DNA from: Escherichia phage KKP 3954 | Sequence record: OR067838.1 | Length of the DNA stretch: 64,000 nucleotides | Strand: one strand, 5' to 3' | Part shown: positions 7,281 through 46,649 of the stretch, piece after piece | Layout of the letters: each line of letters begins with the position of its first letter | Position numbering within the stretch: the stretch's first letter is position 1 | The notes under the pieces: generated by a model | The model's database searches: none | Told to the model about the DNA's origin: nothing | Seen by the model: only the letters and a program-made list of their open reading frames with translations | Position numbers and translations under genes: made by a program

Positions 7281-7352
7281 TGTATCCCGTGCTGGATTCG
7301 AACCAGCGTCACAATAAATTGTGGATCTCTTATCCTGTAAGTCTAACGGGAA
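7281..7352 (-). tRNA. tRNA-like element, no canonical anticodon arm (possible pseudo-tRNA)
   Basis: Perfect T-arm GCTGG-ATTCGAA-CCAGC and 6/7 acceptor complementarity, but no 5-bp anticodon stem found by hand. Confidence 0.25.
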
Positions 7353-7354
7353 AC

Positions 7355-7428
7355 TGGTTGTTTCGACAAGAATCGAACTTGTGTCTCACGATTATCAGTC
7401 GTGGGTTCTACCATTGAACTACGAAACA
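7355..7428 (-). tRNA. tRNA-Ile (anticodon GAT)
   Basis: CCA encoded; acceptor TGTTTCG/CGAAACA; T-arm ACAAG-AATCGAA-CTTGT; anticodon stem CACGA/TCGTG, loop rc CTGATAA. Confidence 0.7.
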
Positions 7429-7434
7429 TTTAAT

Positions 7435-7511
7435 TGGTCGGAATTGCAGGATTCGAACCTGCGACCCTACGCTCCCAAAGCGTATGCTCTACCAAACTGA
7501 GCTAAATTCCG
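7435..7511 (-). tRNA. tRNA-Pro (anticodon TGG)
   Basis: CCA encoded; acceptor CGGAATT/AATTCCG; T-arm GCAGG-ATTCGAA-CCTGC; D-arm GCTC-TACCAAACT-GAGC; anticodon stem TACGC/GCGTA. Confidence 0.75.
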
Positions 7512-7516
7512 TTATA

Positions 7517-7592
7517 TGGCTGGTCTGTCTGGATTTGAACCAAACCTACGACAGTCAAAGTGTCGTGTGCTACCGGACTACACTACAAACCA
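7517..7592 (-). tRNA. tRNA-Gln (anticodon TTG)
   Basis: CCA encoded; T-loop ATTTGAA; anticodon stem CGACA/TGTCG, loop rc CTTTGAC; one mismatch each in T-stem and acceptor. Confidence 0.6.
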
Positions 7593-7690
7593 ATAAATCA
7601 TTTAATGAAGGGCAACCAGAAGAAGTGTGAGAGAAGGAGAAAACCATGAGTAAAAGAGAAAGTTTTCTGGCAACCCTTTATTAAATAATT

Positions 7691-7764
7691 TGGAGCGTTC
7701 TACGAGGATCGAACTCGTGCCGCCGACTTGGAAGGACGGAATGCTACCGCTACACCAAGAACGC
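7691..7764 (-). tRNA. tRNA-Gly (anticodon TCC)
   Basis: CCA encoded; acceptor GCGTTCT/AGAACGC; T-arm ACGAG-GATCGAA-CTCGT; anticodon loop rc CTTCCAA; one mismatch in anticodon stem. Confidence 0.55.
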
Positions 7765-7775
7765 CCTATATATTT

Positions 7776-7805
7776 ACTATACTACATTTTACTATTTGTT
7801 GTCAA
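7776..7805 (-). promoter_or_regulatory. sigma70-like promoter upstream of tRNA-Gly
   Basis: Minus strand TTGACA-N18-TATAGT, placing the start site a few nt before tRNA-Gly. Confidence 0.4.
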
Positions 7806-8077
7806 GACTTTTATTGATTGGGACAGTGACGAGTATCCCGTTGGGTGACTAGCCCTACGTTCGGTAAGCTAACTTAAAATAATACAAAACCAAAGTCAAA
7901 TATTATTCTTCGTTGCTGTCGATGGGAGAGCCGCTTCTCATTTTGCCCCATCCAACCCTACTCCGGTCAAGTTTCGGGTGACTCTTTTTGTGATCAACAC
8001 AATACTAAGAACACTGTCTTTCGAGCAGACCTTGTGCACAGGAACGACGATCAATCACAATGCTCTTAATGTTGTGT

Positions 8078-8152
8078 TGGTGCTCCCACACTGAATCGAA
8101 CAGAGATCCACGGATTACAAAACCGTTGTAATAGCCATTATACTATAGGAGC
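8078..8152 (-). tRNA. tRNA-Thr (anticodon TGT)
   Basis: CCA encoded; acceptor GCTCCCA/TAGGAGC; T-loop AATCGAA; anticodon loop rc TTTGTAA; single mismatches in T and anticodon stems. Confidence 0.6.
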
Positions 8153-8158
8153 AATGCT

Positions 8159-8235
8159 GGGACTCGGCAGGATTCGATACCTGCAATTCCAGAAGCCTAT
8201 TGGCGACTGGGGGTTTACCTTAACTCTACAAGTCC
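8159..8235 (-). tRNA. tRNA-like element, unresolved fold
   Basis: T-arm-like GCAGG-ATTCGATA-CCTGC (8-nt loop) and acceptor-like complementarity GGACTCG/CAAGTCC; no canonical anticodon arm found by hand. Confidence 0.25.
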
Positions 8236-8242
8236 ATAATTC

Positions 8243-8328
8243 TGGCGATGAGTATAGGATTCGAACCTATATTGTTCTTTCGAACACGGATTAACAGTCC
8301 GCCGCTTAAACCGTTCAGCCAACTCATC
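8243..8328 (-). tRNA. tRNA with anticodon GTT (Asn-type) and an atypical 15-nt variable region
   Basis: CCA encoded; perfect acceptor GATGAGT/ACTCATC; T-arm ATAGG-ATTCGAA-CCTAT; anticodon stem ACGGA/TCCGC, loop rc CTGTTAA; extra GTTC-TTTC-GAAC hairpin. Confidence 0.45.
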
Positions 8329-8334
8329 TTAATT

Positions 8335-8422
8335 TGGTGGTGAGTGATGGAGTCGAACCACCCGAATCGCAATGATAACAGATTTACAGTCTGCCCCGCT
8401 ACCCCTACGGAATTAACTCACC
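8335..8422 (-). tRNA. tRNA-Tyr (anticodon GTA)
   Basis: CCA encoded; acceptor GGTGAGT/ACTCACC; T-loop AGTCGAA; long variable arm (class II); anticodon loop rc CTGTAAA. Confidence 0.7.
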
Positions 8423-8553
8423 TAAATACTAATATTTAAATTCTTTTTAAAATAGCCAGTGTTCGCACCACTAACTATGAGTTATCGGTAAGATGGTGGG
8501 GGGCTATCTTCCGAAAGTTTACTCTATTAAAGTAAGCTACATTAAAAAGAACT

Positions 8554-8639
8554 TGGCGGTAGATGTAGGACTCGAACCTACACGCCGTTTCCGACTACAG
8601 TTTAGCAAACTGTCGTGGCTACCATTTCACCAATCTACC
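8554..8639 (-). tRNA. tRNA-Ser (anticodon GCT)
   Basis: CCA encoded; acceptor GGTAGAT/ATCTACC; T-arm GTAGG-ACTCGAA-CCTAC; anticodon stem ACAGT/ACTGT, loop rc TTGCTAA; long variable arm. Confidence 0.75.
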
Positions 8640-8644
8640 TAATC

Positions 8645-8735
8645 TGGCGGAAGGAGGGAGAGTCGAACTCCCAAGGCTCTTTCAAGCTCGGCGGTTTTCA
8701 AGACCGTTTTCGTCGCCACATCGATTTGCCCTTCC
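8645..8735 (-). tRNA. tRNA-Ser (anticodon TGA)
   Basis: CCA encoded; T-arm GGGAG-AGTCGAA-CTCCC; anticodon stem GCGGT/ACCGT (G-U), loop rc CTTGAAA; long variable arm. Confidence 0.7.
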
Positions 8736-8969
8736 ATACTTATAATCTAACATAAAATAATGATTGTTGTCAATACTTTTTTAAAACATTTTACCATGAA
8801 TGGTGACTCCACCAACCCCCGTTCTCCACGAACGGTGCTCTTCGAGCATTTATGTCTTCTAATATAACCGTGGCCTTTGTTTATAATGTCTGACATACTT
8901 GCCTCATTCTCTGCCACCATGATCAGTAGTGGGTTCAAATCACTTGAGCTAATTCATGTTAAAATGTTC

Positions 8970-9044
8970 TGGTGTCTTTACAAGGAATCGAACCTTGACT
9001 AAGAGTTTAGAAGACTCCTGTGCTATCCATTACACCATAAAGAC
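8970..9044 (-). tRNA. tRNA-Arg (anticodon TCT)
   Basis: CCA encoded; acceptor GTCTTTA/TAAAGAC; T-arm CAAGG-AATCGAA-CCTTG; anticodon loop rc CTTCTAA. Confidence 0.7.
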
Positions 9045-9046
9045 GT

Positions 9047-9121
9047 TGGTGGCCCTGGCTGGTTTCGATCCAGCTACCTATCGGTTATGAGCCGACAGCT
9101 CTCCCATTGAGCTACAGGGCC
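9047..9121 (-). tRNA. tRNA with anticodon CAT (second copy; initiator Met or lysidine-Ile)
   Basis: CCA encoded; acceptor GGCCCTG/CAGGGCC; T-arm GCTGG-TTTCGAT-CCAGC; D-arm GCTC-TCCCATT-GAGC; anticodon loop rc CTCATAA. Confidence 0.7.
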
Positions 9122-11735: not shown

Positions 11736-12013
11736 TCAAGACTTTCCTGAAGTGTGTAAAAGCAACAGATAATGAGTGGTACTCTGGATTATTCACTGCT
11801 GGCAAGAAATACGAGATCCTCAACGGGACAGGCAAGAAGTTTTCTCTCGTTATAAACGATGAAGGCACGAAGCAAATGGTATTTGCTGAAAGTTCTGTTT
11901 ATGGTATTTTTGAAGTAGTGCAAGAAGGCTCTCCAATGATTCTGGAGTATCATGGCACTAATAAACCATATACTGCTATGGATGTTATCAACAATAAGAG
12001 GAATGCAAAATGA
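11732..12013 (+). CDS. hypothetical protein
   Basis: 93 aa; ATGA overlap with upstream stop. Confidence 0.5.
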   Translation: MIKTFLKCVKATDNEWYSGLFTAGKKYEILNGTGKKFSLVINDEGTKQMVFAESSVYGIFEVVQEGSPMILEYHGTNKPYTAMDVINNKRNAK

Positions 12014-12192
12014 TTTTACTTTATTCCGGTAAGGCGAAATACATGCAAGGTGTTAAACGTGTAGAGGTTACTAAGACAGTAACAATCGGAAAATCTTTTA
12101 TAGTTTATTATTTCATTATTAATGGGAAGGAGTATGCTGTAGCAAAGACCTTGGTTGATAATGGTAAAACGTGGAAAGTGGAGGCACTATGA
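12010..12192 (+). CDS. hypothetical protein
   Basis: 60 aa; ATGA overlap. Confidence 0.4.
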   Translation: MILLYSGKAKYMQGVKRVEVTKTVTIGKSFIVYYFIINGKEYAVAKTLVDNGKTWKVEAL

Positions 12193-12395
12193 TCCCTGTA
12201 GCTGGGTGGGTGGTATTGGCAACACTTAATGGGAATGTTACTGTGGAGACTAAAACCATCTTCAAAGCACCAGAAGATTGCTATAACTCCTTGGTAACTT
12301 GGCCTCGTGACGAGGATGATAAGGCAGAGTATCAGTGTTTTTACATTGAGGGTAAGCCTGTAGAATTTGAGGTTAAAGTGAAGGAGGAAAAATGA
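12189..12395 (+). CDS. hypothetical protein
   Basis: Track ORF 12171..12395; GGAGG RBS supports start at MIPVAGWV. Confidence 0.45.
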   Translation: MIPVAGWVVLATLNGNVTVETKTIFKAPEDCYNSLVTWPRDEDDKAEYQCFYIEGKPVEFEVKVKEEK

Positions 12396-12862
12396 GAATT
12401 AAAGTAACTAAAGCTTACGATGATAACCCGAAGTTTATCTCTTTGAATAAGAGTTATGGTGTCGAAAACGGCGATGAGTTCGAGGTTATCGATCTTTTTG
12501 AGGACCACGGTTATATTGTCAAAGCCCCAATCACAGAGCAGGCTATTATCATCTTACGCACAGAGGCTGTTGAGGTAGGTTCTGATGAGCCTCAATATGA
12601 CAGCCCATACATGACAGAGTGGATTGTGGCTGTAGATGTTGGAGGCAGGGTTTCTGTATTGAAAGCTCCTAATCTCCATCCTAGTTTTACAGAGAACGGT
12701 AAGACAGCTTTGGATTATGGGTTGCCAGAAGATGTTGAGAATACACCGCCAGGTATGTACCGTTGGATTTGCTCTTTCCATGAAGAGAAGGATTGGGAAT
12801 CAGGGCTTGTTGATGATTGGCATTTTGAAGTGGAAAGTTCTTTTTTAATCATGCCAGCTTAA
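12392..12862 (+). CDS. hypothetical protein
   Basis: 156 aa; ATGA overlap with upstream gene. Confidence 0.55.
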   Translation: MRIKVTKAYDDNPKFISLNKSYGVENGDEFEVIDLFEDHGYIVKAPITEQAIIILRTEAVEVGSDEPQYDSPYMTEWIVAVDVGGRVSVLKAPNLHPSFTENGKTALDYGLPEDVENTPPGMYRWICSFHEEKDWESGLVDDWHFEVESSFLIMPA

Positions 12863-12872
12863 AGGAGGTTAT

Positions 12873-13217
12873 ATGAAAGTTTGGATAGATGATATGCGGA
12901 ACCCAGCCGACTATGGACAGGAAGATGCAATTTGGTTTAAAACGTCACAAGAAGCTATGGCCTTTCTCAATGATCCTGCTAAACTGTATCGAAGAGTAAC
13001 CGAGTGGTCTTTTGACAATGATTTAGGTATGGAGTCAGACCAAGATGGGTATGATGTTTTCCTGCACCTGGAAGAACTTCTGGCGTTTGGTAAACCTTGC
13101 TTTGGTTCACCTACCATTTTCGTGCATACTTCTAATCCCGCCGCTGGGGATAAATTCATGCTTGCAAAAGAATCCATGCTGCGTTATGGTATTAAAATGA
13201 TTCGTGTGCACTACTAA
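12873..13217 (+). CDS. hypothetical protein
   Basis: 114 aa; AGGAGG RBS. Confidence 0.55.
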   Translation: MKVWIDDMRNPADYGQEDAIWFKTSQEAMAFLNDPAKLYRRVTEWSFDNDLGMESDQDGYDVFLHLEELLAFGKPCFGSPTIFVHTSNPAAGDKFMLAKESMLRYGIKMIRVHY

Positions 13218-13226
13218 GGAGAGAAC

Positions 13227-13370
13227 ATGCATCATTTGGTTTGGTCGGAACAAGAAGAGGACGAAGGTTACTTTATCTACCGAGAAGAAGAGGATTGGCC
13301 CGACACAAGTAATGATCTTTTACTTCCAGACACTAGTTTTTTCGAGGATAACTTAAGAGAGGAGGATTAG
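13227..13370 (+). CDS. small acidic hypothetical protein (47 aa)
   Basis: Not in track (<60 aa); AGGAGAGAAC RBS then ATG; fills the gap between flanking genes. Confidence 0.35.
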   Translation: MHHLVWSEQEEDEGYFIYREEEDWPDTSNDLLLPDTSFFEDNLREED

Positions 13371-13376
13371 GAAACA

Positions 13377-13733
13377 ATGAGTGGTATTGAAAACAACATT
13401 TGTTACCAACCTCTTACCTGGATGGGTGAGGGTCATTATGCGCAACGTGTTATCGTCTGTGCTGCAAATAAGTATATTTTGAATAATGGTGAAGAGTTAA
13501 TTATTCCTTGTGTTCGACATGCAAATCCTGTACTATATGCACAGTTAAACGTGTTGAAAGAAGCAGGTGTAATCAACAAAACTTTGTGCACACCAGATAA
13601 TCAAGGCTTTATCGATCAGTATTACAATTGGTGGAGTCGTGCGGATGCTTACATCATCGCGGAAAATGCTGACCAGATCGACCATGAGCGTAATGGTCAC
13701 GACCATGAATTATTTAGCGAGGGATTATACTAA
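13377..13733 (+). CDS. hypothetical protein
   Basis: 118 aa; GGAGG RBS. Confidence 0.55.
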   Translation: MSGIENNICYQPLTWMGEGHYAQRVIVCAANKYILNNGEELIIPCVRHANPVLYAQLNVLKEAGVINKTLCTPDNQGFIDQYYNWWSRADAYIIAENADQIDHERNGHDHELFSEGLY

Positions 13734-14284
13734 TGTTTATTACAAGCGATTTGCATTTTATGCATAAACGTATTCGAGAGTTTGCTCCTGAATATCGTCC
13801 CTGGGAAGATATGGACCACATGACAGAAGCCTTGATCGAAGCATGGAACAAATGTGCTACTACTCCTGGTGTTAAGATGTGGCATTTGGGCGACTTCTGT
13901 TTCGGAACTGAAGAAGATACCCGTAAAATTGCTTCCCGTCTCCAAGGAGATATCACCTACTGTGTTGGGAACCATGACTACAGCAAACACCGAGAAGTGC
14001 TTGCAGAGTATGGAGAAGTGGTGTATTATGACGAAGTGAAATATCAGAAGCTGTTCTTCGTCTTAAGCCATTACCCTATGGCCTCCTGGAATAAACAAGG
14101 TCGTGGATCAATCATGCTACACGGGCATTCCCACGGATCTTTCCCTGATGAAGCTTATGGTAAAATGTTAGATGTGGGTTGGGATGCACACGGAAAAATC
14201 TTGCATTTTGATGAGATAATTTCTATGATGAGTAAACGAGATATCGTGACTGTAGACCATCACAAAATAATCAAAGGAGAGTAA
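13733..14284 (+). CDS. calcineurin-like metallophosphoesterase
   Basis: 183 aa; phosphoesterase motifs HLGDFCFG, GNHD, HGHSHG; first gene of RNA-repair-like trio. Confidence 0.65.
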   Translation: MFITSDLHFMHKRIREFAPEYRPWEDMDHMTEALIEAWNKCATTPGVKMWHLGDFCFGTEEDTRKIASRLQGDITYCVGNHDYSKHREVLAEYGEVVYYDEVKYQKLFFVLSHYPMASWNKQGRGSIMLHGHSHGSFPDEAYGKMLDVGWDAHGKILHFDEIISMMSKRDIVTVDHHKIIKGE

Positions 14285-14285
14285 T

Positions 14286-15218
14286 GTGACTAAATTTAAT
14301 TGCGACGATTTGGTTGAAAAAGGTTTAGTTCATAAGAAAACATATAAAGAAGGAGAGTATTCTGGTCTATCTGTTCTTAAGTATAAGAACAAAGTTTTCT
14401 GGGATAACTTATGGAGCATTGATTCTCGTCTTCTAGAATGTCGCGGAATCGTTGTTGATGCTGATGACAATGTTGTTATTTGGCCTTTCACTAAGATTTT
14501 TAATCGTTTTGAGAATGGCACAGATCTACCATTGGATGAACTTGTAGATGTGGTTCGTAAAGTAAATGGTTTTATGGCCTCTGTAGGTGTATATAAAGGT
14601 CAACTTATTGTATCGACAACAGGAAGCCTTGAATCAGATTTTGCAAGTATTGCAAAGAATCGTATTGTTTCAGAGTGTGATGACATAGAACATTTCATCA
14701 AATGGACAGAGAGTGCAAAAGCAACTTTCCTTTTTGAAATCTGTGATCCTTCTGATCCGCATATTGTCGAAGAAGAACCAGGTGCATACTTAATTGGTGC
14801 CAGAATTCAAAATCCTGATGGGACAAGTTTTATGTTACCTGAAGGTGCTCTTGATGGAATTGCTTCTGTCACCAAATTTAAGCGTCCTGAAGTTCATCCA
14901 ATGGTTAAGTTTTCAGATGTTGTTGAAATGTCTAAACATTGTAAACACGAAGGGTTTATTGTTCGTGAAACAAACTGTCCGTTTAACTTACTTTTAAAGA
15001 TTAAGTCACCATACTATCTTACTAAGAAGTTTCTTATGCGTGGTGGAGATAAGAAGTGGGATCTTATTTGGGATAATCCAAAAAATGCCAAACAAATTGT
15101 TGACGAAGAATATTACACTTTGTTAGAATGGATTCGAAATAATTTTACGAAGACTCAATGGGCTGCTTTAAATCAGCAAGAGCGACGTGAAGAAATCGAA
15201 AACTTCTTTGGAGGATAA
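14286..15218 (+). CDS. nucleotidyltransferase of the ligase family (RNA-ligase-like)
   Basis: 310 aa; GTG start after AGGAGAG; motif I-like KVNG, motif IV-like EGFIV, motif V-like LKIK. Confidence 0.5.
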   Translation: MTKFNCDDLVEKGLVHKKTYKEGEYSGLSVLKYKNKVFWDNLWSIDSRLLECRGIVVDADDNVVIWPFTKIFNRFENGTDLPLDELVDVVRKVNGFMASVGVYKGQLIVSTTGSLESDFASIAKNRIVSECDDIEHFIKWTESAKATFLFEICDPSDPHIVEEEPGAYLIGARIQNPDGTSFMLPEGALDGIASVTKFKRPEVHPMVKFSDVVEMSKHCKHEGFIVRETNCPFNLLLKIKSPYYLTKKFLMRGGDKKWDLIWDNPKNAKQIVDEEYYTLLEWIRNNFTKTQWAALNQQERREEIENFFGG

Positions 15219-15623
15219 ATGAAACAACTTATCATTTTACGTGGTGTTTCAGGTGCTGGTAAATCTACAGTAGCAGAAATTATTTCTGAAGGTTATTGGC
15301 CTATCTGCGAGGCAGATCAATATCATTACACAGAAAGTGGTGTTTACGATTGGAAGCCAGAAAATGTAGGTAAAGCACACGCATGGTGTCAGAGTATTGT
15401 TCGTGATGCTATGGCGTCTAATCTTAACAAGATTATTGTTTCTAACACTTCAACCACAGAGAAAGAACTTAAACCTTATCTAGCTCTTGCTGAAGAGTTT
15501 GGTTATCAAGTTATCTCTTTAGTTGTTGAAAATAGGCACGGTAATGATTCAATTCACGAGGTTCCACAATATATCCGTGATCAGCAAGAGAAACGTCTTC
15601 GTGGTTCACTTAAACTTCAATAA
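15219..15623 (+). CDS. polynucleotide 5'-kinase (P-loop, T4 Pnk kinase-domain-like)
   Basis: 134 aa; Walker A GVSGAGKST; IVSNTSTTEKE resembles the T4 Pnk IISDTN region. Confidence 0.6.
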   Translation: MKQLIILRGVSGAGKSTVAEIISEGYWPICEADQYHYTESGVYDWKPENVGKAHAWCQSIVRDAMASNLNKIIVSNTSTTEKELKPYLALAEEFGYQVISLVVENRHGNDSIHEVPQYIRDQQEKRLRGSLKLQ

Positions 15624-15632
15624 GGAGAAATA

Positions 15633-15959
15633 ATGCAGATTTATACAGATGATCGTAAATATGAGACAATTTTAGATGAAGATACTGGACGAATTACCGT
15701 TCTCCGTCACGGTGAAGAGTGGCGTGATGAAACGGGAGACAATTATATCTTGTCTCTGATTCATCTTATTGAACAAATGCGTGATGATTACGCTGAACTG
15801 CATTATGAAAATGAGGCGAATAAAGTAAAATTTGAAAATGAATTAGAAGAGAAAGAATCTGAAATGGTATATCTAAAAGAAGAGATCTCCCGTTTGGAGG
15901 AAGAGATTGATGCTCTTCAGGAAGAGATTTACGAACTCAACAGCGAACTGAATGCTTAA
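15633..15959 (+). CDS. hypothetical coiled-coil protein
   Basis: 108 aa; heptad-like C-terminus EISRLEEEIDALQEEIYELNSEL. Confidence 0.5.
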   Translation: MQIYTDDRKYETILDEDTGRITVLRHGEEWRDETGDNYILSLIHLIEQMRDDYAELHYENEANKVKFENELEEKESEMVYLKEEISRLEEEIDALQEEIYELNSELNA

Positions 15960-15968
15960 GGATGAATT

Positions 15969-16157
15969 ATGAAAAAAGATATCGTTGTTGATTGGCTGAC
16001 TTGTCCTTGTGGCAGTCATGAAATCTCTGTAAACACAGAAGGTGATAAACATTATTTGTTCTATGGTGATAAAATCACTTGCCTTTCTTGCGGACGCATT
16101 GGTATTATAGAAACAGATGATTGCTGTGTTTTTGAATCTTGGGATGAAGATGAATGA
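15969..16157 (+). CDS. hypothetical zinc-ribbon protein
   Basis: 62 aa; CPCGSHE ... CLSCGR. Confidence 0.45.
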   Translation: MKKDIVVDWLTCPCGSHEISVNTEGDKHYLFYGDKITCLSCGRIGIIETDDCCVFESWDEDE

Positions 16158-16375
16158 GTACTGCATTTTATGTTCGTAGCGGAGACGAGGATTTTCTAGC
16201 TACTTTTGATGACGGTGATCTTGAAGATATGTATGAAGATATGCTTGACTATGCCAAAGGGCAAGGTTTCACAAGCATTGATTATATGTTGGCAACATCT
16301 ACAACGTTACTCGACGCAGATTTGGATGAAGTGTGTAACAGATTGAAAATTTCAGTTTTTAAATGGGAGGACTAA
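16154..16375 (+). CDS. hypothetical acidic protein
   Basis: 73 aa; ATGA overlap. Confidence 0.45.
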   Translation: MSTAFYVRSGDEDFLATFDDGDLEDMYEDMLDYAKGQGFTSIDYMLATSTTLLDADLDEVCNRLKISVFKWED

Positions 16376-17490
16376 TGCAACAAACAAATCAAACGCTGTA
16401 TGGTAAAGATTCAAAAGGAAAACTTAAACAGTGGACAGTGTATACAGATGGTGCAGTTGTTACTGTAGCTCATGGAAGGGTAGGTGGAAAAATCACAGAA
16501 AAATCTTATACAGCAGAAGCAAAAAACATTGGTCGTTCCAATGAAACAACACCGGAAGAACAAGCTGAACTTGAAGCTTTTGCCAAATGGACAAAACAGT
16601 TAAAGAATGGCTATTATAAAACAAAAGAAGAAGCTGAAAACCATGTTCCTTCTACACCAATGAAATGCCAGGATTATAAAGATTATCCTGAAAGGGTTGT
16701 GTTCCCTGGTTATGCACAATACAAACTGAACGGGTTACGTTCTATGATTAACATGAAAGGGGAGTGTTTATCAAAAGCTGGGGAAGTGTATAACCTGCCA
16801 CCTCATTGGGAAGGTATTCCAAACTTTATTAGTGAAGTTGTTGGTCATCCTCTTGATGGTGAAGTGTTTGCTGGGTTAGGTGTCCTTAGTCTGCAACAAA
16901 TTAACAGTGCCTGGAAGAAGCATAATGCAAATACACCTTTGCTGAATTATTACGTATACGATATTCCAGTTCCAGATCTACCGTTTGAAAAACGTGTTGA
17001 TGTTCTGGCTGCTCTTAAGGCAGTAGTGGAAGATTATGGTCTTGATGAGCTTATTTGTGTAGTTCATACAGAGTATATTGAAAACCAAGAACAGTTTGAT
17101 GCTTTCTATGAAAAAGCTTTACTTGAAAAGGCTGAAGGTGTAGTATATCGTAATGCTCGCGGAGTTTACGAATTTGATAAACGTTCTTATGACGTTATTA
17201 AACGTAAGCCTCGCCACACCCTTGAAGTTAAAGTAACAAATTCAAAAAGTGATAAAAATGGCGATGGAGTGTTGACAGGTGAGATGGAAAATGGTAAAGT
17301 AGTCGAATTCTTAATGCGTAAAGATGCTCATGAGACTATCAATTATCGTAAAGCAGAGAATGCTTCTACCTTGATTAATCAGTTCGTTGAAATAGAGTAT
17401 GAAGAATTTTCAGATGAAGGTATTCCAACAAAACCTGTTGGTGTTCGTATTCGAGAAATGATCCCAGGCACTTGGGAACCAGCAGAATAA
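16375..17490 (+). CDS. ATP-dependent DNA ligase (minimal type)
   Basis: Track ORF 16363..17490; GGGAGG RBS supports MQQTNQ start; motif I KLNGLR, III LDGEVF, IV EGVVYR, V VIKRK. Confidence 0.55.
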   Translation: MQQTNQTLYGKDSKGKLKQWTVYTDGAVVTVAHGRVGGKITEKSYTAEAKNIGRSNETTPEEQAELEAFAKWTKQLKNGYYKTKEEAENHVPSTPMKCQDYKDYPERVVFPGYAQYKLNGLRSMINMKGECLSKAGEVYNLPPHWEGIPNFISEVVGHPLDGEVFAGLGVLSLQQINSAWKKHNANTPLLNYYVYDIPVPDLPFEKRVDVLAALKAVVEDYGLDELICVVHTEYIENQEQFDAFYEKALLEKAEGVVYRNARGVYEFDKRSYDVIKRKPRHTLEVKVTNSKSDKNGDGVLTGEMENGKVVEFLMRKDAHETINYRKAENASTLINQFVEIEYEEFSDEGIPTKPVGVRIREMIPGTWEPAE

Positions 17491-17499
17491 GGAGGAAAA

Positions 17500-17694
17500 A
17501 TGTTCTTAGCCATTCTAATCGTTTTCAGTGTGCTTTCTTTTTATTGTATGAATGCTTCTGAAAACTTTCCTAAGAATTCAAAGAAAAGAACCGTATGTAT
17601 TGCGATTGATTCATGTATGTCTGGAGTTGGGTATGCGGTAGTTTCTTGTTTCTTAGCTTATCATTGTGCAAAATACCTGGAGGCATTTTTATGA
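17500..17694 (+). CDS. small membrane protein
   Basis: 64 aa, hydrophobic N-terminus. Confidence 0.4.
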   Translation: MFLAILIVFSVLSFYCMNASENFPKNSKKRTVCIAIDSCMSGVGYAVVSCFLAYHCAKYLEAFL

Positions 17695-17873
17695 TAATTT
17701 TAGCAACAATTCTTATGATGTTGATAGCCATTGCTATTGTAATTCTGGCATCTTTTCCGGCGGATAAATGGTATTTCAATATTCCACGTATGCTTGTTTT
17801 CGGTTTCGCAGGAATTTACATGGGTGAGACTGTAGTAAATATTAGCAACTTTCTAGAAAGCTATTTTAAATAA
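17691..17873 (+). CDS. small membrane protein
   Basis: Track ORF 17613..17873; GGAGG RBS supports start MIILATILMM; two hydrophobic segments. Confidence 0.45.
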   Translation: MIILATILMMLIAIAIVILASFPADKWYFNIPRMLVFGFAGIYMGETVVNISNFLESYFK

Positions 17874-17882
17874 GGAGTTATA

Positions 17883-18608
17883 ATGATCGAGAATTTTTTT
17901 AAAGATATTAAATTCGATACTGAATTTTTCAAAAATGCAGCAAAGCACGTGATTGACTGGAATGCCAAAGCACGAGGTGGTGAACAACCGGAATTCACTC
18001 AAGAGCTATTTATGTCCCAAATCGGGTTCGTTCGTGAAGAGCTTAAAGAGTATGAAACAGCCGCGAAAGTAAACGATCATGTAGAACTCTTGGATGCAGC
18101 AGCGGATATTTTTGTAGTATCAAGTTATCTGACTTACATGTTCTTTGGTGAAGAACATACGATGAATTTCTTGGACTATGCTGTAGGCGATGTTTTTACT
18201 CCAACTGTGTATACTGATTTTGATGCTTTGGAACAAACATTTACAGAGCCAGTTCAAATGGCACTAATGGCTGCTGGTATTATGCGTATGTCTCGTGACA
18301 CTCTAATCCGTTCAAAATATCCAGAAAAGAAAGTTATTAAAGAGGTATTGAAAAGTAATGATTCCAAGTATCCAACTAAACAACAGTTGCTGAAAACTTG
18401 GAAAACTTCAGATATCGATTCAGCCATTGCACAAGAATGCACTGCAATTGAAGAACGAAATGCCAATCGTCCAGAAGGAGCATACACTGGTGTTCATGCT
18501 GTTTATAATGAAAAACAGAAAGTGTATGTGTTCTTTGATGATAAAGGTAAGATCATGAAACCATCGACCTTTGTCAAACCTAATATTGCAGGTATTATTA
18601 ATAAGTAA
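17883..18608 (+). CDS. putative all-alpha NTP pyrophosphohydrolase (MazG/dUTPase-like)
   Basis: 241 aa; EELKEYETA ... ELLDAAADIF resembles the MazG EExxE/ExxD metal-binding pattern; weak. Confidence 0.35.
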   Translation: MIENFFKDIKFDTEFFKNAAKHVIDWNAKARGGEQPEFTQELFMSQIGFVREELKEYETAAKVNDHVELLDAAADIFVVSSYLTYMFFGEEHTMNFLDYAVGDVFTPTVYTDFDALEQTFTEPVQMALMAAGIMRMSRDTLIRSKYPEKKVIKEVLKSNDSKYPTKQQLLKTWKTSDIDSAIAQECTAIEERNANRPEGAYTGVHAVYNEKQKVYVFFDDKGKIMKPSTFVKPNIAGIINK

Positions 18609-42296: not shown

Positions 42297-43240
42297 ATGG
42301 TGTTAATTGGTAGCCGTGCATTGCAAATTCATGCTATGGACATGGGAAAAGACTTGTATCGCCCTTGTGTAGATTTAGATTACCTGTGTATACAGAACAA
42401 GAGTGGGAAGAATTATCAAAAATGTTCTCTCAAGAGGAGTTTGTTGAACTTGTAGAACGTAAAGGAAACAAAGGCCATGTCAAAATGATAGCTGGTGCAC
42501 ATTTGGAATACGATATTGCTTCTCAAGGAGATAGCACAGAAGCTTTGATTAGTTATTGTGAAGATTCTGATGATGTTCGTCGAACTTACGCTGGACATGT
42601 TGTTGCTCCTTTAGATGTGCTCTACCTTCTTAAAATGAGTCATCGTTTTAAAAAGGATAGTCCTCACTTCTTTAAAACTATGAAAGATATTCATTTCATG
42701 CGATCACTAGGTGCAAAGATCCCAGAAAATCTTAAGAGTATTTATGAGTTGCGTGAGAAAGAAACATACACTTACTCTCATCCAAACTTAAACGTGAGAA
42801 GTAAAGACTTCTTTAAAGGTGATGAGGTTCCGTATGTTTATGATCATGACTCTATTCATGAAGCAATCGCAGTAATGGATGCTCCAGCATATAAATCTTA
42901 TATGAAAGATGGAAGTGAAGTTATGACCAGCAAAGAAAAGTTTTTTGCTCAACCAAAACATGTGCGCCTGTTAGGTGTTTATGAAGAAGCGTGCGTTTTG
43001 GCTTTGGAACGTTCACAAATTCCTTTCGGTGAAGAGATCGGAGGTCCAACCCCTAAGCAAAGTTTTATGATGGCTTTATCTAAAGTTTGCACATCTATCA
43101 CTAGTGGTTGGTTTAGGGAATATGCTTGGGAGAACTTTTATATTGTTACTAAACTATATGAAAACATGGGTGAAAACGACTATGTTGAACGTTTTAAAGC
43201 TAATCAACATGTAGTTAAGCCTTTTGAAGGAGGTTATTAA
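42297..43240 (+). CDS. hypothetical protein, frame-disrupted near its 5' end
   Basis: Strong RBS AGAGGAGAAATATT-ATG at 42297 (frame 0, about 52 codons); main 291-aa ORF 42365..43240 in another frame, open from 42314. Confidence 0.45.
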
Positions 43241-43637
43241 TATGTGTGGATATCTTTCAGAAAGTTATTTCAAAGTGACGCATGAGGATTTAGAAAAAGC
43301 ACGATTGAAATTGACAGCTATTATTGAATACTCTAATACTGTTGATCACAGATTAAAGACTACTAAAGTATCTGTTCCTTGTTGGTTAGGTTTACGGCAT
43401 AAAACAATGTCTCAACATGATCATGTTGTTCGAGAGATGCATGGTTGGTGTTGGTTTCACGATGTGGCTTTGCATTTTGGTTATATTACAGAAGAAGAAC
43501 ATAGATTCTGTGAACTAACGTATCGTATTCCAACCCTTCACGATCTAGATTTGTGGAAGAAAGCAAACGAGATTTTTCTTACAGAAAGTGATTGGCGTAA
43601 AGTTATGGCTTGTCTTGAATGGAGGGGTAATGAGTAA
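43224..43637 (+). CDS. hypothetical protein
   Basis: 137 aa; GGAGG RBS. Confidence 0.5.
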   Translation: MKEVINMCGYLSESYFKVTHEDLEKARLKLTAIIEYSNTVDHRLKTTKVSVPCWLGLRHKTMSQHDHVVREMHGWCWFHDVALHFGYITEEEHRFCELTYRIPTLHDLDLWKKANEIFLTESDWRKVMACLEWRGNE

Positions 43638-44313
43638 AACAGTTTTGTCTATGTTTGACGGATCTGGGATCATGGTGTTACGTTATGCCGAAGCAGGTCA
43701 CAAGTGTTTTTGTGTAAACGCTGATGAAGGGGACCACGGTAAATACGAGGTTAGGATGGAGCACCCAAACATAACCTATGTGAATGCTTGGATAGATTCT
43801 ACATTCAACCCTGAAGATCATGGAATACCTAAACCCGATATTATTTTTGGATTTCCACCTTGCACTATGTTAGCAGGTAGTGGTAGCAAACACGAACGCA
43901 GCACAGAGGAATTAGATGAAGCTTTAGCTAATATTCGTGTAGTGGAAGCTTTGGGTAACAAATACAATGTTCCTTGGATGATTGAGAACCCAGTAGGTAA
44001 ACTTTCAACCTTATGGCGTAAACCCGATTTTTACTTTGATCCTTATGAGTATGGTGGGTATTTGTTTGAAGAGGAAGGAAGCTTTCATCCTAAAATGCCT
44101 ACCCGTGATGGGTATACAAAGAAAACTTGTATTTGGCACGGGAATGGTTTTGTTCAACCAGTGAAGAAACCAGTAGATCATATAGGCTGTTTCTGGGGTT
44201 GGAAAAGCTTAGGCGGAGCTAGTGCAAAAACAAAACAACTTAGATCACTAACCGCACGTGGTTTTGCTCGTGCAGTGTTTTTGTCTAACAATCTTCTAGA
44301 TAAGGAGAAATAA
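43630..44313 (+). CDS. DNA (cytosine-5)-methyltransferase-like protein
   Basis: Track ORF 43588..44313; GGAGGGG RBS supports start MSKTVL; motif I-like SMFDGSG, motif IV FGFPPC, motif VI ENP. Confidence 0.55.
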   Translation: MSKTVLSMFDGSGIMVLRYAEAGHKCFCVNADEGDHGKYEVRMEHPNITYVNAWIDSTFNPEDHGIPKPDIIFGFPPCTMLAGSGSKHERSTEELDEALANIRVVEALGNKYNVPWMIENPVGKLSTLWRKPDFYFDPYEYGGYLFEEEGSFHPKMPTRDGYTKKTCIWHGNGFVQPVKKPVDHIGCFWGWKSLGGASAKTKQLRSLTARGFARAVFLSNNLLDKEK

Positions 44314-44966
44314 TGTCAAATTCAAAACCAGTAGTTGCTTATCAAGTAGATCGTAATGATGGTGAAGGAAGTGTTGTTATTTTCAGCACACACGGTCTTG
44401 AGGCTCGTCGAAAAGGTGCGTATCGTTTAGAATGTGAGTTTGAAGACTGCACAAGCCACCGTGTCAAACAATTTGATCAATATGCTGATAAAGGCTTCGT
44501 CCCTATCAAAGCTTTACTGGAAGATGGTTGGTGGGTATATTCTGCTTTTGATTACTCAAAACTGGAAGAGTCAGCTTCGTGCGCCTCCGAGATCGAATAT
44601 GATGATTACTATGACACTCTCTACCTTCCAGAATGGCTTGTCTTTTCCCCTGATGAGAGAAGCGTCTGGAAAACTTGGGAAGAAATGGAGAGACATGCAT
44701 ATAGCATCAATGAAGCCTTAGATCGTAAAGCTTGGTTTATTGAGGCAGTAAAGGCGGCATACCCTCAATTTTCATTCTGTGATTTCACTGGTGGCCCAGG
44801 GTACATTACACATACAGCCTCTTTTGAGTTCCCTGGTTCACGTTATAAAGGTAACGTTTATTGGGATTGGGATGAAAATAAACAACCTTCGGCTCAAGAC
44901 TTCCGTTGCTATGTTTGTCAAGGTGATCAAGAAGCCCTTGACAAATACCTACAAAGTCTGGTATAG
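44313..44966 (+). CDS. hypothetical protein
   Basis: 217 aa; ATGA overlap. Confidence 0.55.
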   Translation: MSNSKPVVAYQVDRNDGEGSVVIFSTHGLEARRKGAYRLECEFEDCTSHRVKQFDQYADKGFVPIKALLEDGWWVYSAFDYSKLEESASCASEIEYDDYYDTLYLPEWLVFSPDERSVWKTWEEMERHAYSINEALDRKAWFIEAVKAAYPQFSFCDFTGGPGYITHTASFEFPGSRYKGNVYWDWDENKQPSAQDFRCYVCQGDQEALDKYLQSLV

Positions 44967-45024
44967 TGCCAACATCTGAACAAAGCTTCCTGTTTCAGGG
45001 GGCTTTTCTTTTATAGGAGGGAAT

Positions 45025-45498
45025 ATGTTTCAAGTAAATATCAATGTGCATAATAGTTACTCTGATTGTGAAACGTGTGGCTATAATTCATCTAATGTTG
45101 TTCGTATTAGTGGCGATTTAGGAGAAGCTTCTTTTGGAGAAGAAGCAAGTTGCTTTAGTGGTATGGATGCAGAATGGAATGATATTGCACATTGGTTGGT
45201 GAGCAAACTAAAAGAAAAAGAGAAACCATTTCCTACTCTGCTTGATCGTTCTCTTGTAGAAGATGCAGGTAAAGCATATGCAGACTATGCGTATGCAGAC
45301 GGGAAATATTTGGAAGATGATAAGGCTAACCATTTGCTTTATGTTTACTATGAAGCTGAATCTGCCTACGATAATTATTATAGCATGTCTAACATCCTCC
45401 GTCTATTTGCAGAGTTTGATATTTATTTCGAAGTAGAATTTTCAGAAGACGATACTTACGAATATGATTCTTATGATCCATTTGAGGAGGACGAATAA
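45025..45498 (+). CDS. hypothetical acidic protein
   Basis: 157 aa; GGAGGG RBS. Confidence 0.5.
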   Translation: MFQVNINVHNSYSDCETCGYNSSNVVRISGDLGEASFGEEASCFSGMDAEWNDIAHWLVSKLKEKEKPFPTLLDRSLVEDAGKAYADYAYADGKYLEDDKANHLLYVYYEAESAYDNYYSMSNILRLFAEFDIYFEVEFSEDDTYEYDSYDPFEEDE

Positions 45499-46298
45499 TG
45501 CCAAGACGTGTATATTTTATTAGTGGTGCGGGACTAAGTGCTGACAGCGGAATCCAAACATTTCGCACAGAAACAGATTCTGGAAAGGCATTATGGGATG
45601 AATATGATTTAACAGAAGTCTGTGACATTTTCAACTTCCGTGACGGTTATCAGCAAGAACAGGGTATTCCTGATGCTATGGGTGGCTTAGATGTGGAAGG
45701 ATATAACCTCTACCGTAAAACTCACGACTTCTACAATAAACGTCGCGTGGAATTAGAGAAAGTTGACCCGAATCCAGCACATCTTCAGATTGGAGAATGG
45801 TTCGAAAAATACGGTGCAGAAAGGATTATTAACATTACTACTAACGTTGACGATCTATTAGAACGCGCTGGAATCGATAGAGAAGAAATATTGCACGTTC
45901 ATGGTTTCTTGCCAGAAGTTGTTGTTGATAACAAAATTATCAAAGATGTGGGTTACGCAGCTATTGATGTAGACGATTACAAATATGTGAAGCCTAATGT
46001 GGTGTTTTTTGGTGAGAATGCACCACTCTACACAGACATGTATCACAAACTGGATCAACTAACATCACAAGATATGGTTATCGTTGTAGGCTGCTCTAAC
46101 CAAGTAATCAACTTCAACTGGGAACTCTTCCCTGCCCTGAATATTGGGGTTAAGATGGTTGTAGTTAACCCAGGTTTGAATTTTGTAGAACAAACTCTCT
46201 ACGAAGAACGTGGAGTGCTTGTCTACCGAGAGAAAGCAGGAACAGTCTTCAGTGATGAAGGCTTTATCAAAATGGTTGAAGACCATTTAAACAAATAA
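45498..46298 (+). CDS. sirtuin-like (SIR2 family) NAD-dependent protein without zinc ribbon
   Basis: 266 aa; FISGAGLSADSGIQTFR, NPAH, TTNVDDL, HVHG, VVFFGE, VVGCS in SIR2 order; no Cys4 module. Confidence 0.6.
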   Translation: MPRRVYFISGAGLSADSGIQTFRTETDSGKALWDEYDLTEVCDIFNFRDGYQQEQGIPDAMGGLDVEGYNLYRKTHDFYNKRRVELEKVDPNPAHLQIGEWFEKYGAERIINITTNVDDLLERAGIDREEILHVHGFLPEVVVDNKIIKDVGYAAIDVDDYKYVKPNVVFFGENAPLYTDMYHKLDQLTSQDMVIVVGCSNQVINFNWELFPALNIGVKMVVVNPGLNFVEQTLYEERGVLVYREKAGTVFSDEGFIKMVEDHLNK

Positions 46299-46307
46299 AC
46301 CACTCAA

Positions 46308-46327
46308 GGGGCTTCGGCCCCTTTCTT
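46308..46327 (+). terminator. GGGGC-UUCG-GCCCC hairpin plus T-rich tract
   Basis: Third copy of the identical 14-nt hairpin, right after the sirtuin-like gene. Confidence 0.45.
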
Positions 46328-46341: not shown

Positions 46342-46614
46342 ATGACTGAAGAAATCCGTGATTACTACCTTGCACATTACGTTTACTACTTTGCTAATGC
46401 TACACAAAAAGGGGAAGGTAATCTTTACTTGGCAACAGGACATGGAACAGGTGTTAGGAAATCAAATATTGATAATGCCTTGGCTCAAGTGGCTGCTGGG
46501 CTAGAAGATAAACTTCAAACGCCTGTAGTTGTAGTGATGCAAAATATAAGTTACCTAGCAAGTTGTACTGAAACCGAATTTAACGCATCTGAAACGCAAT
46601 CTAACGAAGAATAA
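46342..46614 (+). CDS. hypothetical protein
   Basis: 90 aa; AGGAG RBS; last plus-strand gene before strand switch. Confidence 0.5.
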   Translation: MTEEIRDYYLAHYVYYFANATQKGEGNLYLATGHGTGVRKSNIDNALAQVAAGLEDKLQTPVVVVMQNISYLASCTETEFNASETQSNEE

Positions 46615-46620
46615 AACAAA

Positions 46621-46649
46621 GGCACCCAAGTGGGTGCCTTTTCTATTTT
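46621..46649. terminator. bidirectional terminator at convergent gene junction
   Basis: GGCACCC-AAGT-GGGTGCC hairpin with T-runs on both sides. Confidence 0.55.

Follow-up and report, generated by a model that had tools for sequence, protein, structure and literature searches.

The plus-strand reading frame at positions 45498 to 46298 of the window, which is the whole 64,000-nucleotide stretch of Escherichia phage KKP 3954 (record OR067838.1) that was analysed, raises the question of whether it encodes a genuine sirtuin, what has become of the zinc ribbon of that protein, and on which substrate such a phage enzyme would act. The source phage is a Phapecoctavirus of the Stephanstirmvirinae lineage. 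Sirtuin homologs were observed in 980 phage records, among them the 'cobB' gene of the model phage T5 and those of many phage-therapy candidates. The gene, its family, the absence of its zinc ligands and the functional hypothesis are already contained in public records and papers: the Sir2/CobB proteins of Vibrio phages KVP40, phiSt2 and phiGrn1, which lack zinc ligands, were described in 2016 (PMC5107563), and an RNA-repair role was predicted for the phage sirtuin clade from comparative genomics by Iyer et al. 2022 (PMC9503650). Literature searches turned up no experimental work on a phage sirtuin of this clade; they yielded genome reports, the 2016 in-silico study and the 2022 prediction only. 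One further paper considered as a source on phage sirtuins, PMC13464706 (NARP3), has the words 'phage Sir2' only as part of 'anti-phage Sir2-HerA' and is irrelevant here.

Identity of the protein

The reading frame encodes a genuine SIR2-family protein, and the match lies far beyond chance. At 74.5 bits (E=1.4e-20) the Pfam profile PF02146 (SIR2) far exceeded its curated gathering score of 24, spanning residues 10-203 of the protein and positions 1-178 of the 180 in the profile, and PHROG 2162 matched over residues 3-266, nearly its full length, with E=1.1e-96; these two results bear out the family assignment made in the preliminary description. The protein is 100% identical to gp071 of Escherichia phage nieznany, which is annotated as Sir2, shares about 53% identity with T5 'cobB' (AAX12033), and has orthologs in Vequintavirinae at 49-55% identity over the full length with the same motif set. 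The structure model is confident and displays a sirtuin fold. The best relatives by both sequence and fold were CobB, Sir2-Af1/Af2, SIRT5 and PfSir2A. On both counts the protein stands nearest to class III, as represented by E. coli CobB, SIRT5 and Sir2-Af1. The comparison with Sir2, CobB and defence-associated SIR2 domains that the preliminary description had proposed thus came out for Sir2 and CobB, and the defence SIR2 models were not matched.

The motifs and segments of the protein are as follows.

45525 to 45566, plus strand: NAD-binding loop GAGLSADSGIQTFR, residues 10-23
45729 to 45746, plus strand: FYNKRR, residues 78-83, with Y79 and R82 as the class III YxxR anion clamp
Residues 92-95 of the sirtuin: NPAH
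45837 to 45857, plus strand: TTNVDDL, residues 114-120, counterpart of TQNIDxL with an invariant Thr115 in place of Gln
45894 to 45905, plus strand: HVHG, residues 133-136, with His135 as the catalytic histidine
45906 to 45992, plus strand: Cys-less zinc-ribbon remnant, residues 137-165, with a beta-hairpin and then a loop in the model
45999 to 46016, plus strand: VVFFGE, residues 168-173, the FGE motif of the substrate loop
46083 to 46097, plus strand: VVGCS, residues 196-200, counterpart of the canonical GTS motif

All six SIR2 motifs named earlier for this protein are present, and their order from residues 10-23 through 196-200 was confirmed. TTNVDDL was found where it had been placed, but it is not canonical as had been claimed, since Thr stands where TQNID has Gln; no literature on SIRT5 Q140L that bears on this change was found. 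The protein combines a Rossmann fold with the NAD loop GAGxS, both the N and the D of TQNxD, and the catalytic His of the HG motif. His135 is kept in all 139 representatives examined, and within the PHROG 2162 family the NAD loop residues G10, A11, G12, S14, S17, G18, F22 and R23 are invariant, as are Y79 and R82, which align with Y92 and R95 of CobB (a position marked by the Y92A chain of 6rxs) and supply the class III YxxR feature. The catalytic His, the NAD loop, N116, D118 and YxxR remain invariant down to about 50% identity across three phage families. From motifs and model, we predict a catalytically competent NAD+-dependent sirtuin belonging to a known phage-specific clade (PHROG 2162).

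The zinc ribbon

The four-Cys zinc ribbon is usual in the SIR2 family though not universal, with fewer than three Cys in the ribbon segment of 54 of the 139 relatives examined. The KKP 3954 protein has two cysteines only, C42 and C199, neither of which occupies a zinc-ligand position. Residues 137-165, the segment that aligns with the zinc ribbon of CobB and Sir2-Af2, contain none, and V, I, V and D stand opposite the zinc Cys of CobB in the alignment. The absence of zinc-ribbon Cys pairs reported in the preliminary description is therefore correct, but the further claim that the module itself is missing did not hold. The segment is about 8 residues shorter than that of CobB and forms a beta-hairpin in the model (residues 136-150), and therefore only the Cys ligands are gone while the scaffold is kept, with its own conserved residues E140, D150, G152 and Y153. 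Taken as a whole, the earlier interpretation is partly supported.

Zinc-ligand loss is linked with the Gln-to-Thr change of the NAD pocket, with an odds ratio of 25 among 126 TQN/TTN representatives, uncorrected for kinship. The loss in the phage clade is derived and accompanies the NAD-pocket change, and the clade itself branched off from the class III (CobB/SIRT5-like) sirtuins, losing the four zinc Cys and retaining the ribbon scaffold.

The locus and its neighbours

The genes and signals around the sirtuin gene are listed below.

43588 to 44313, plus strand: Dcm-like DNA methyltransferase reading frame (phrog_757), with the RefSeq-annotated start at window position 43630
44313 to 44966, plus strand: 217-aa reading frame (phrog_8514), without a match in Pfam or by fold
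44982 to 45006, plus strand: terminator-like hairpin, preceding the two-gene unit of the 157-aa reading frame and the sirtuin gene
45025 to 45498, plus strand: acidic 157-aa reading frame (phrog_9509), with 36 D+E against 10 K+R
45484 to 45490, plus strand: Shine-Dalgarno-like GAGGAGG, 7 nt 5' of the sirtuin ATG and within the end of the 157-aa reading frame
45498 to 46298, plus strand: sirtuin coding sequence, 266 aa with an ATG start, member of the PHROG 2162 phage sirtuin clade
46306 to 46323, plus strand: terminator-like hairpin (GGGGCTTCGGCCCC and then a T-rich tail), 8 nt past the sirtuin stop codon
46342 to 46614, plus strand: 90-aa reading frame (phrog_15991), the final gene of the plus-strand block
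46618 to 46641: bidirectional terminator-like hairpin after the 90-aa reading frame

The sirtuin gene indeed follows a C5-methyltransferase and two uncharacterised proteins, as first described, but it is the penultimate gene of its block and not the last, the 90-aa reading frame at 46342-46614 coming after it. The 157-aa reading frame shares one base with the sirtuin gene, its stop codon running into the sirtuin start codon as TAATG. Its homologs form 9 clusters only, every one in the KKP 3954 lineage, and it was dismissed as a general sirtuin partner on account of this confinement. The label 'putative aminoacyl-tRNA synthetase' on its PaulScherrer homolog is supported by no Pfam match. The 217-aa neighbour is kept in all eight type C IMG/VR loci and in PaulScherrer, and a Foldseek search of its model (pLDDT 78, pTM 0.60) against the PDB gave nothing better than E=0.24. 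In Pfam and PHROGs, the 137-aa, 217-aa, 157-aa and 90-aa neighbours fall into uncharacterised families only, and the 291-aa neighbour is DUF7275.

Orthologs among RNA-repair genes

The KKP 3954 sirtuin is orthologous to sirtuins that lie inside RNA-repair operons (49-55% identity over the full length). RNA end-repair genes surround the ortholog in Vequintavirinae and T5-like phages, and inspection of Mydo, Mangalyan and about 13 IMG/VR loci bore out that sirtuin and cassette adjoin. The corresponding genes of the KKP 3954 window are as follows.

7198 to 9121, minus strand: cluster of 10 tRNA genes, candidate substrates of the RNA-repair module
12873 to 13217, plus strand: cREC_REC cyclic-phosphate-processing protein, a possible functional partner judged only from the orthologous operons of other phages
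13733 to 14284, plus strand: calcineurin-like metallophosphoesterase, belonging to the RNA-repair cassette
14286 to 15218, plus strand: T4 Rnl1-type RNA ligase (PF09511)
15219 to 15623, plus strand: AAA_33 P-loop kinase-like protein
16363 to 17490, plus strand: ATP-dependent DNA ligase, directly 3' of the sirtuin gene in Vequintavirinae
17883 to 18608, plus strand: MazG-like (PRA-PH) pyrophosphohydrolase

RNA ligase and sirtuin are thus both encoded in the window and the whole RNA-repair set is present (12873-18608), but it lies about 27-30 kb upstream of the sirtuin gene, which in the KKP 3954 window adjoins none of the RNA ligase, cREC, kinase, MazG or phosphoesterase genes. An obligate coupling of sirtuin and RNA ligase was rejected, since nieznany carries the identical sirtuin with neither RNA ligase nor AAA_33 kinase anywhere in its genome. 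The RNA ligase is also absent within 10 kb of the T5-like sirtuin loci, and RNA ligase homologs occur in Pseudomonas and Streptomyces phage groups, outside the leading sirtuin host groups. On these grounds the link is not obligate.

Proposed function and alternatives

The role we consider most likely, and put forward tentatively, is the removal of RNA 2'-phosphates in the manner of Tpt1, as Iyer et al. 2022 proposed. The enzyme would cleave nicotinamide from NAD+ and move the ADP-ribose to an anionic oxygen acceptor near His135, the acceptor being the 2'-phosphate that remains on a cleaved tRNA or other RNA after end-healing. In a first, Tpt1/KptA-like step the phosphate would attack C1'' of NAD+; in a second, the 2''-OH, activated by the His, would attack phosphorus, yielding ADP-ribose 1'',2''-cyclic phosphate and an RNA with a 2'-OH. 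The sirtuin may in this way act alongside the phage cREC protein, metallophosphoesterase, kinase and RNA ligase against host anticodon nucleases. In the KKP 3954 lineage the gene would have moved out of the repair operon, and would be expressed with the lineage-specific acidic 157-aa protein as a small unit.

Several of the observations described count against this RNA-repair role, namely the distance of about 30 kb from the cassette with a Dcm-like methyltransferase and uncharacterised proteins as the actual neighbours, the identical sirtuin of ligase- and kinase-free nieznany, the T5-like loci, and the differing phage groups of RNA ligase and sirtuin. Moreover, gene clustering in phages partly mirrors the timing of expression and not a shared pathway. 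The acyl-lysine tunnel of sirtuins is narrow, which might keep an RNA 2'-phosphate from reaching the NAD+ C1', and to our knowledge all biochemically characterised sirtuins with the full motif set are protein lysine deacylases. Tpt1/KptA partners tRNA ligases whose reaction leaves a 2'-phosphate behind, and we know of no sirtuin with a demonstrated Tpt1-like activity.

With only slightly lower probability, the enzyme may instead be a protein lysine deacylase that acts early in infection, stripping host or phage proteins of acetyl groups or, given YxxR, of succinyl, malonyl or glutaryl groups. Its targets might include acetyl-CoA synthetase, RNA polymerase, translation factors or phage replication proteins, and metabolism might be reprogrammed or an inhibitory acylation reversed. 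The closest relatives (CobB, Sir2-Af1/Af2, SIRT5 and PfSir2A) are deacylases throughout, the protein keeps its catalytic His and FGE substrate loop, the class III YxxR is invariant, and the gene is kept in genomes that have no RNA ligase. In SIRT5 and CobB, Y-x-x-R is the motif that binds succinyl-lysine by its distal carboxylate. A deacylase role was likewise proposed for the Vibrio phage sirtuins (PMC5107563). Such a role fails, however, to explain why orthologs in two independent phage lineages are set in RNA end-repair operons, and the loss of zinc ligands together with the NAD-pocket Gln-to-Thr change is unlike every characterised deacylase. The protein also falls far below the NCBIfam cut-offs for CobB, with 79.7 bits against 320 for the equivalog NF040867 and 94.5 bits against 243 for the subfamily NF001753, and the host already encodes a CobB.

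The RNA 2'-phosphate reading has a broader form, in which the Cys-less Gln-to-Thr phage sirtuins as a group would not be deacylases at all and would be the first sirtuins acting on nucleic acids, finishing phage tRNA repair against host anticodon nucleases; we give this generalisation, already in print as a 2022 prediction (PMC9503650), a fair but less than even probability. The loss of zinc ligands and Gln would then mark a cleft remodelled from a lysine tunnel to a site for RNA ends.

Two further activities seem improbable. The protein might be an ADP-ribosyltransferase that mono-ADP-ribosylates a host target or DNA/RNA ends with no removal of a group; the T4 proteins Alt and Mod ADP-ribosylate host targets, with a fold unrelated to that of sirtuins. 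At a similarly low probability, it might consume NAD+ or act against defence, hydrolysing NAD+ or NAD-derived signals so that the host is shut off or Thoeris/CBASS is blunted. Defence SIR2 domains are NADases, and NAD+ salvage genes lie near the sirtuin in some lineages: Mydo has nicotinamide phosphoribosyltransferase and ribose-phosphate pyrophosphokinase there, and Xanthomonas phage XbC2 has NMNAT, nicotinate phosphoribosyltransferase and a Nudix hydrolase. That the zinc loss destabilised the enzyme and left a non-catalytic binding protein or relic is very improbable: the zinc ligands and the Gln of TQN are indeed gone, but the catalytic residues are invariant as described above, the ribbon remnant keeps conserved residues of its own and the structure model is confident.

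If RNA 2'-phosphate removal were true, sirtuin chemistry would be extended from proteins to RNA and a step would be added to phage counter-defence against tRNA-cleaving immunity; if deacylation were true, phages would have a direct route to rewriting the host acylome. Practical handles are provided by the placement in a class III-like clade with invariant YxxR, by the derived zinc loss alongside the Gln-to-Thr change, and by natural Phapecoctavirus variants whose sirtuins are identical and which differ in the presence of RNA ligase and kinase.

Comparison with known systems

Defence-type SIR2 NADases (ThsA, DSR1/2, Sir2-HerA, Avs5 and SPARSA) were rejected as an identity for the protein, there being no PADLOC match and a SIR2_2 score below threshold; unlike them, the 266-aa phage sirtuin consists of one domain and carries neither sensor nor partner domains. 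SirTM enzymes have Gln in place of the catalytic His, and their genes share an operon with a macrodomain hydrolase (PMC8120803). This identity was ruled out because His135 is retained and invariant; no macrodomain match was obtained among the window proteins scanned. Tpt1/KptA is a proposed functional analogue only, similar in its dependence on NAD+ and in an ADP-ribosylated intermediate resolved by 2''-OH attack, but its fold is unrelated (ART superfamily) and sequence similarity is absent.

The Vibrio phage sirtuins are likewise phage-encoded, keep the catalytic His and lack zinc ligands, and the one from Vibrio phage D525, also devoid of the Cys ligands, shares 37% identity with the KKP 3954 protein; this branch differs in having TAN in place of TTN and in a gene that adjoins the one for the topoisomerase II large subunit. 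With the class III sirtuins (CobB 1S5P/6RXJ, human SIRT5 and Archaeoglobus Sir2-Af1) the protein has in common the catalytic His, the GAGxS...SGIxxFR loop, the N and D of TQNID, the FGE loop and the YxxR clamp. It differs from them in an identity of about 25% only, in the absence of zinc ligands and in Thr for the TQNID Gln, and some phage members, including that of KKP 3954, have some 25 additional residues inserted in the helical module (residues 49-70). The closest likeness is to the rest of the PHROG 2162 clade (T5, rV5, Mydo and phAPEC8), with which it shares TTNVDD, the Cys-less ribbon, FYNxRR, DxGY and VKPNVVFFGE; these signature motifs were also observed in rV5-like phages and PaulScherrer. 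What sets the gene of the KKP 3954 lineage apart from this clade elsewhere is its position outside the RNA ligase/cREC/kinase operon and away from HAD_SAK.

Identity of the phage sirtuin and its local unit

The sirtuin gene lies in a plus-strand block of the window, in which the following features were recorded, the hairpins being consensus matches that do not by themselves prove function:

42365-43240, plus strand: conserved phage protein of 291 aa, DUF7275 (E=7e-76), phrog_2141, upstream of the sirtuin in the same block
43588-44313, plus strand: Dcm-like methyltransferase, ~227-241 aa, phrog_757, with FDGSG, FPPC and ENPVG motifs
44313-44966, plus strand: 217-aa protein, phrog_8514, immediately upstream in all window-like (type C) loci
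44982-45006: terminator-like hairpin before the pair formed by the 157-aa ORF and the sirtuin
45025-45498, plus strand: acidic ORF of 157 aa (36 D+E against 10 K+R)
45498-46298, plus strand: sirtuin coding sequence, 266 aa with an ATG start, from the ORF list and translation
46306-46323: terminator-like hairpin, 8 nt past the sirtuin stop
46618-46641: bidirectional hairpin closing the plus-strand block after a 90-aa ORF

All six SIR2 motifs named in the preliminary description were found in the order given there, namely GAGLSADSGIQTFR at residues 10-23, NPAH at 92-95, TTNVDDL at 114-120, HVHG at 133-136, VVFFGE at 168-173 and VVGCS at 196-200. The Pfam SIR2 profile (PF02146, gathering score 24) matched the protein at 74.5 bits (E=1.4e-20), which is well past chance, and a PDB sequence search with it returned Sir2-Af2, E. 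coli CobB and SIRT5. Since the motifs are present in order and the similarity is far above chance, the SIR2-like identity is confirmed, although the description claimed less about the protein than can be inferred. It had also put the gene at the end of its block; the gene is indeed near the end, but it is penultimate, with the 90-aa ORF after it.

The stop codon of the 157-aa ORF overlaps the sirtuin start as TAATG, and a Shine-Dalgarno-like GAGGAGG precedes the ATG by 7 nt. Of the sigma-70-like promoter matches in the region, the best (44938-44967, plus strand; TTGACA, 18-nt spacer, TATAGT; 11/12 with an extended TG) stands just before the hairpin at 44982-45006 and the 157-aa ORF, and is only suggestive because the promoter-like matches in the region total no more than in shuffled sequence. 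Only nine homolog clusters of the 157-aa protein were observed, all in the phage lineage of the window; its candidate roles are regulator, partner and nucleic-acid mimic. Its PaulScherrer homolog (37% identity) is annotated as a "putative aminoacyl-tRNA synthetase", a label for which no Pfam support was found. Trp, Gly and Asp are invariant at many positions of the 217-aa protein, and neither a Pfam family nor a PDB fold match for its model (pLDDT 78) was found. The Dcm-like methyltransferase gave no Pfam match at E<0.1.

Distribution and previous knowledge of the family

The sirtuin is 100% identical to gp071 of Escherichia phage nieznany (Phapecoctavirus, Stephanstirmvirinae), labelled "Sir2 (NAD-dependent deacetylase)" in RefSeq, and PHROG 2162, of the same name, spans it end to end (E=1.1e-96). 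In megablast, the 3.5 kb around the gene matched nieznany at 98.8% identity and many phAPEC8 relatives at 90-98%. Homologs were detected by tblastn in 980 phage records (910 with at least 80% query coverage), including T5 ("cobb: putative transferase", 53% identity), T5-like Salmonella and Klebsiella phages, rV5-like Vequintavirinae, Proteus phage Mydo, and large Vibrio and Xanthomonas phages. The protein database held 2005 related clusters at 90% identity (E<=1e-5), and a 50%-identity representative library held 360 related proteins (E<=1e-10).

The family is therefore large and has long been annotated, and the feature is already known from GenBank/RefSeq annotation, its PHROG family, zinc loss published in 2016 and a function predicted in 2022. 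Vibrio phage Sir2/CobB proteins were modelled on E. coli CobB in 2016, with the zinc ligand explicitly reported absent there and in KVP40, and T5 was named among the carriers (PMC5107563). Most viral sirtuins were later described as a distinct clade with predicted RNA repair function, by analogy with KptA (Iyer, Burroughs, Anantharaman, Aravind 2022; PMC9503650). That study described three types of neighbourhood: 2H, Nudix, cREC and PIN in jumbo phages; a T4-like tRNA ligase, cREC, kinase, MazG and calcineurin-like phosphoesterase in phages V5/Mydo; and a "Swiss-army-knife" HAD phosphatase in the T5-like phage SP15. A literature search for an experimental study of any phage sirtuin found none, and what is still of interest is how this very common phage enzyme works, its biochemistry having so far only been predicted.

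Gene neighbourhoods

We scored 10 kb on each side of the sirtuin gene in 54 IMG/VR loci encoding a member of this clade. The RNA ligase/kinase/DNA ligase arrangement (type A) was present in full or in part in 13 loci, the T5-like arrangement of sirtuin, HAD_SAK and DUF7415 (type B) in approximately 30, and the window-like arrangement (type C) in eight. Type A is seen in Mydo and Mangalyan (Vequintavirinae), where RNA ligase, cREC_REC (PF20274, E=2e-17), AAA_33 kinase-like, sirtuin and DNA ligase genes form a same-strand run adjoined by a metallophosphatase gene; in Mangalyan, tRNA genes lie ~5 kb upstream. In T5, the gene after cobB encodes HAD_SAK_2, "HAD domain in Swiss Army Knife RNA repair proteins" (E=4e-20), and two tandem DUF7415 paralogs follow it downstream of the sirtuin (7658-8479 of T5 locus L003). 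Type C runs from the Dcm-like methyltransferase through the 217-aa protein, an optional 157-aa acidic protein and the sirtuin to an optional 90-aa ORF. The 217-aa neighbour was kept in 8/8 type C loci and in PaulScherrer, even in the divergent loci L047 and L051, whose sirtuins reach only 48-51% identity; the methyltransferase was co-localised in 6/8. The published association with RNA-repair genes is thus confirmed for two lineages, and the lineage of the window represents a third context type, with no RNA-repair gene adjacent to the sirtuin.

Genes of NAD+ salvage were also noticed within a few kb of the sirtuin in some lineages. Mydo (L004, 1-1130) has nicotinamide phosphoribosyltransferase and ribose-phosphate pyrophosphokinase; Xanthomonas phage XbC2 (L061, 1-2393 and 5771-6670) has NMNAT/ADP-ribose pyrophosphatase and nicotinate phosphoribosyltransferase, and the next gene after its sirtuin encodes a Nudix hydrolase. 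This arrangement is consistent with recycling of nicotinamide and ADP-ribose products.

The window itself carries a complete RNA end-repair cassette (12873-18608, plus strand), upstream of the sirtuin and adjoining a cluster of ten tRNA genes:

7198-9121, minus strand: tRNA cluster
12873-13217, plus strand: cREC_REC
13733-14284, plus strand: Metallophos, calcineurin-like phosphoesterase
14286-15218, plus strand: RNA_lig_T4_1, T4 Rnl1-type RNA ligase
15219-15623, plus strand: AAA_33 kinase-like
16363-17490, plus strand: ATP-dependent DNA ligase
17883-18608, plus strand: MazG-like protein

Despite its identical sirtuin, the 145-kb genome of nieznany yielded neither RNA ligase nor AAA_33 kinase in a genome-wide search, while cREC, phosphoesterase, DNA ligase and the MazG-like gene are retained. 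The ligase/kinase region is a variable module within the genus, because window ~12000-16366 has no nucleotide alignment with nieznany, in which four small ORFs stand in place of the two genes. RNA ligase was counted in 671 phage records; among them are large Pseudomonas (175) and Streptomyces (62) groups, neither of which belongs to the leading host groups of the sirtuin. Owing to these groups and to nieznany, obligate coupling is ruled out, and the link is frequent.

Three GenBank entries described as Campylobacter jejuni phages have proteins like those of E. coli phages: the RNA ligase of B15 (MG065650) is 97.7% identical to the ligase of the window, and C2 (MG065655) and C12 (MG065635) match at the level of E. 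coli rV5-like phages. Probably these host labels are wrong or the lysates were contaminated.

Conserved residues and probable activity

In an alignment of 22 family members (51-87% identity), G10, A11, G12, S14, S17, G18, F22 and R23 of the NAD loop are invariant, as are N116, D118, the catalytic H135, the F171/E173 loop, G198 and S200. Y79 and R82 of FYNKRR are likewise invariant. When CobB chains are aligned to the profile, these two residues occupy the columns of Y92 and R95, and 6rxs, a chain engineered as Y92A, has Ala at exactly the Y79 column; they form the YxxR clamp of class III sirtuins. In SIRT5 and CobB, this clamp binds succinyl- or malonyl-lysine through the distal carboxylate.

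The protein has the sirtuin fold, all the residues required to cleave off nicotinamide and to resolve an ADP-ribosyl intermediate with the help of His, and an anion-binding clamp, and the fold, catalytic residues and clamp are under strong conservation; a non-catalytic relic is highly improbable. We infer an active enzyme, which would transfer ADP-ribosyl from NAD+ onto an anionic acceptor. Our leading but tentative candidate for that acceptor is an RNA 2'-phosphate, a Tpt1-like role as proposed by Iyer et al., mainly because two different RNA end-healing gene sets flank the clade in two phage lineages, and also because the second sirtuin step chemically parallels the second step of Tpt1. Protein lysine deacylation is quite possible as the next candidate: every one of the closest relatives is a deacylase, the YxxR clamp has been preserved, and the sirtuin persists where RNA ligase is missing, from the whole genome in nieznany and from the surrounding 10 kb in T5-like phages. 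ADP-ribosyltransferase activity is unlikely, and a role as NADase or in anti-defence is equally so.

Comparison with canonical sirtuins and origin of zinc loss

The clade consistently differs from canonical sirtuins in two ways. TTNVDDL, listed among the SIR2 signatures in the preliminary description, is not the canonical form, as it carries T-T-N-V-D where canonical sirtuins have T-Q-N-I-D, the Gln being replaced by the invariant Thr115; and zinc ligands are absent between HG and KPNVVFFGE. The loss of zinc is derived, since the distant jumbo-phage contig relatives L056 and L057 (34-36% identity), which bear the clade signatures IGY, VKPNVVFF and DDLxERAG, retain TQN and CxxC...CxxC-type ligands. 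Vibrio phage D525 and XbC2 branches display TAN with no Cys ligands, and the core enterobacterial-phage clade is TTN, Cys-less and YxxR throughout. An exhaustive library search gave 139 representatives with a length of 200 aa or more, comprising 70 TQN with at least three Cys, 36 TTN with fewer than three, both mixed states (11 TQN with fewer than three, 9 TTN with at least three) and 13 in which A, S, M or C takes the place of the Gln; the catalytic His was kept in all 139. Thr in place of Gln and the lack of zinc-ligand Cys tend to occur together (Fisher's exact test for TQN/TTN against Cys, odds ratio 25, p=1e-13), an association rather than proof because the counts are not corrected for phylogeny.

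The only cysteines of the protein are C42 and C199, and V, I, V and D stand at the positions of the CobB zinc cysteines, so that the reported absence of Cys ligands stands. The segment from HG to KPNVVFFGE has conserved residues of its own (E140, D150, G152 and Y153), and in the AlphaFold2 model (pLDDT 84.4, pTM 0.84) residues 136-150 form a beta-hairpin, so that the ribbon scaffold is retained and the metal site lost. To describe the protein as lacking the zinc-ribbon module therefore overstates the change, as this segment is only ~8 residues shorter than that of CobB.
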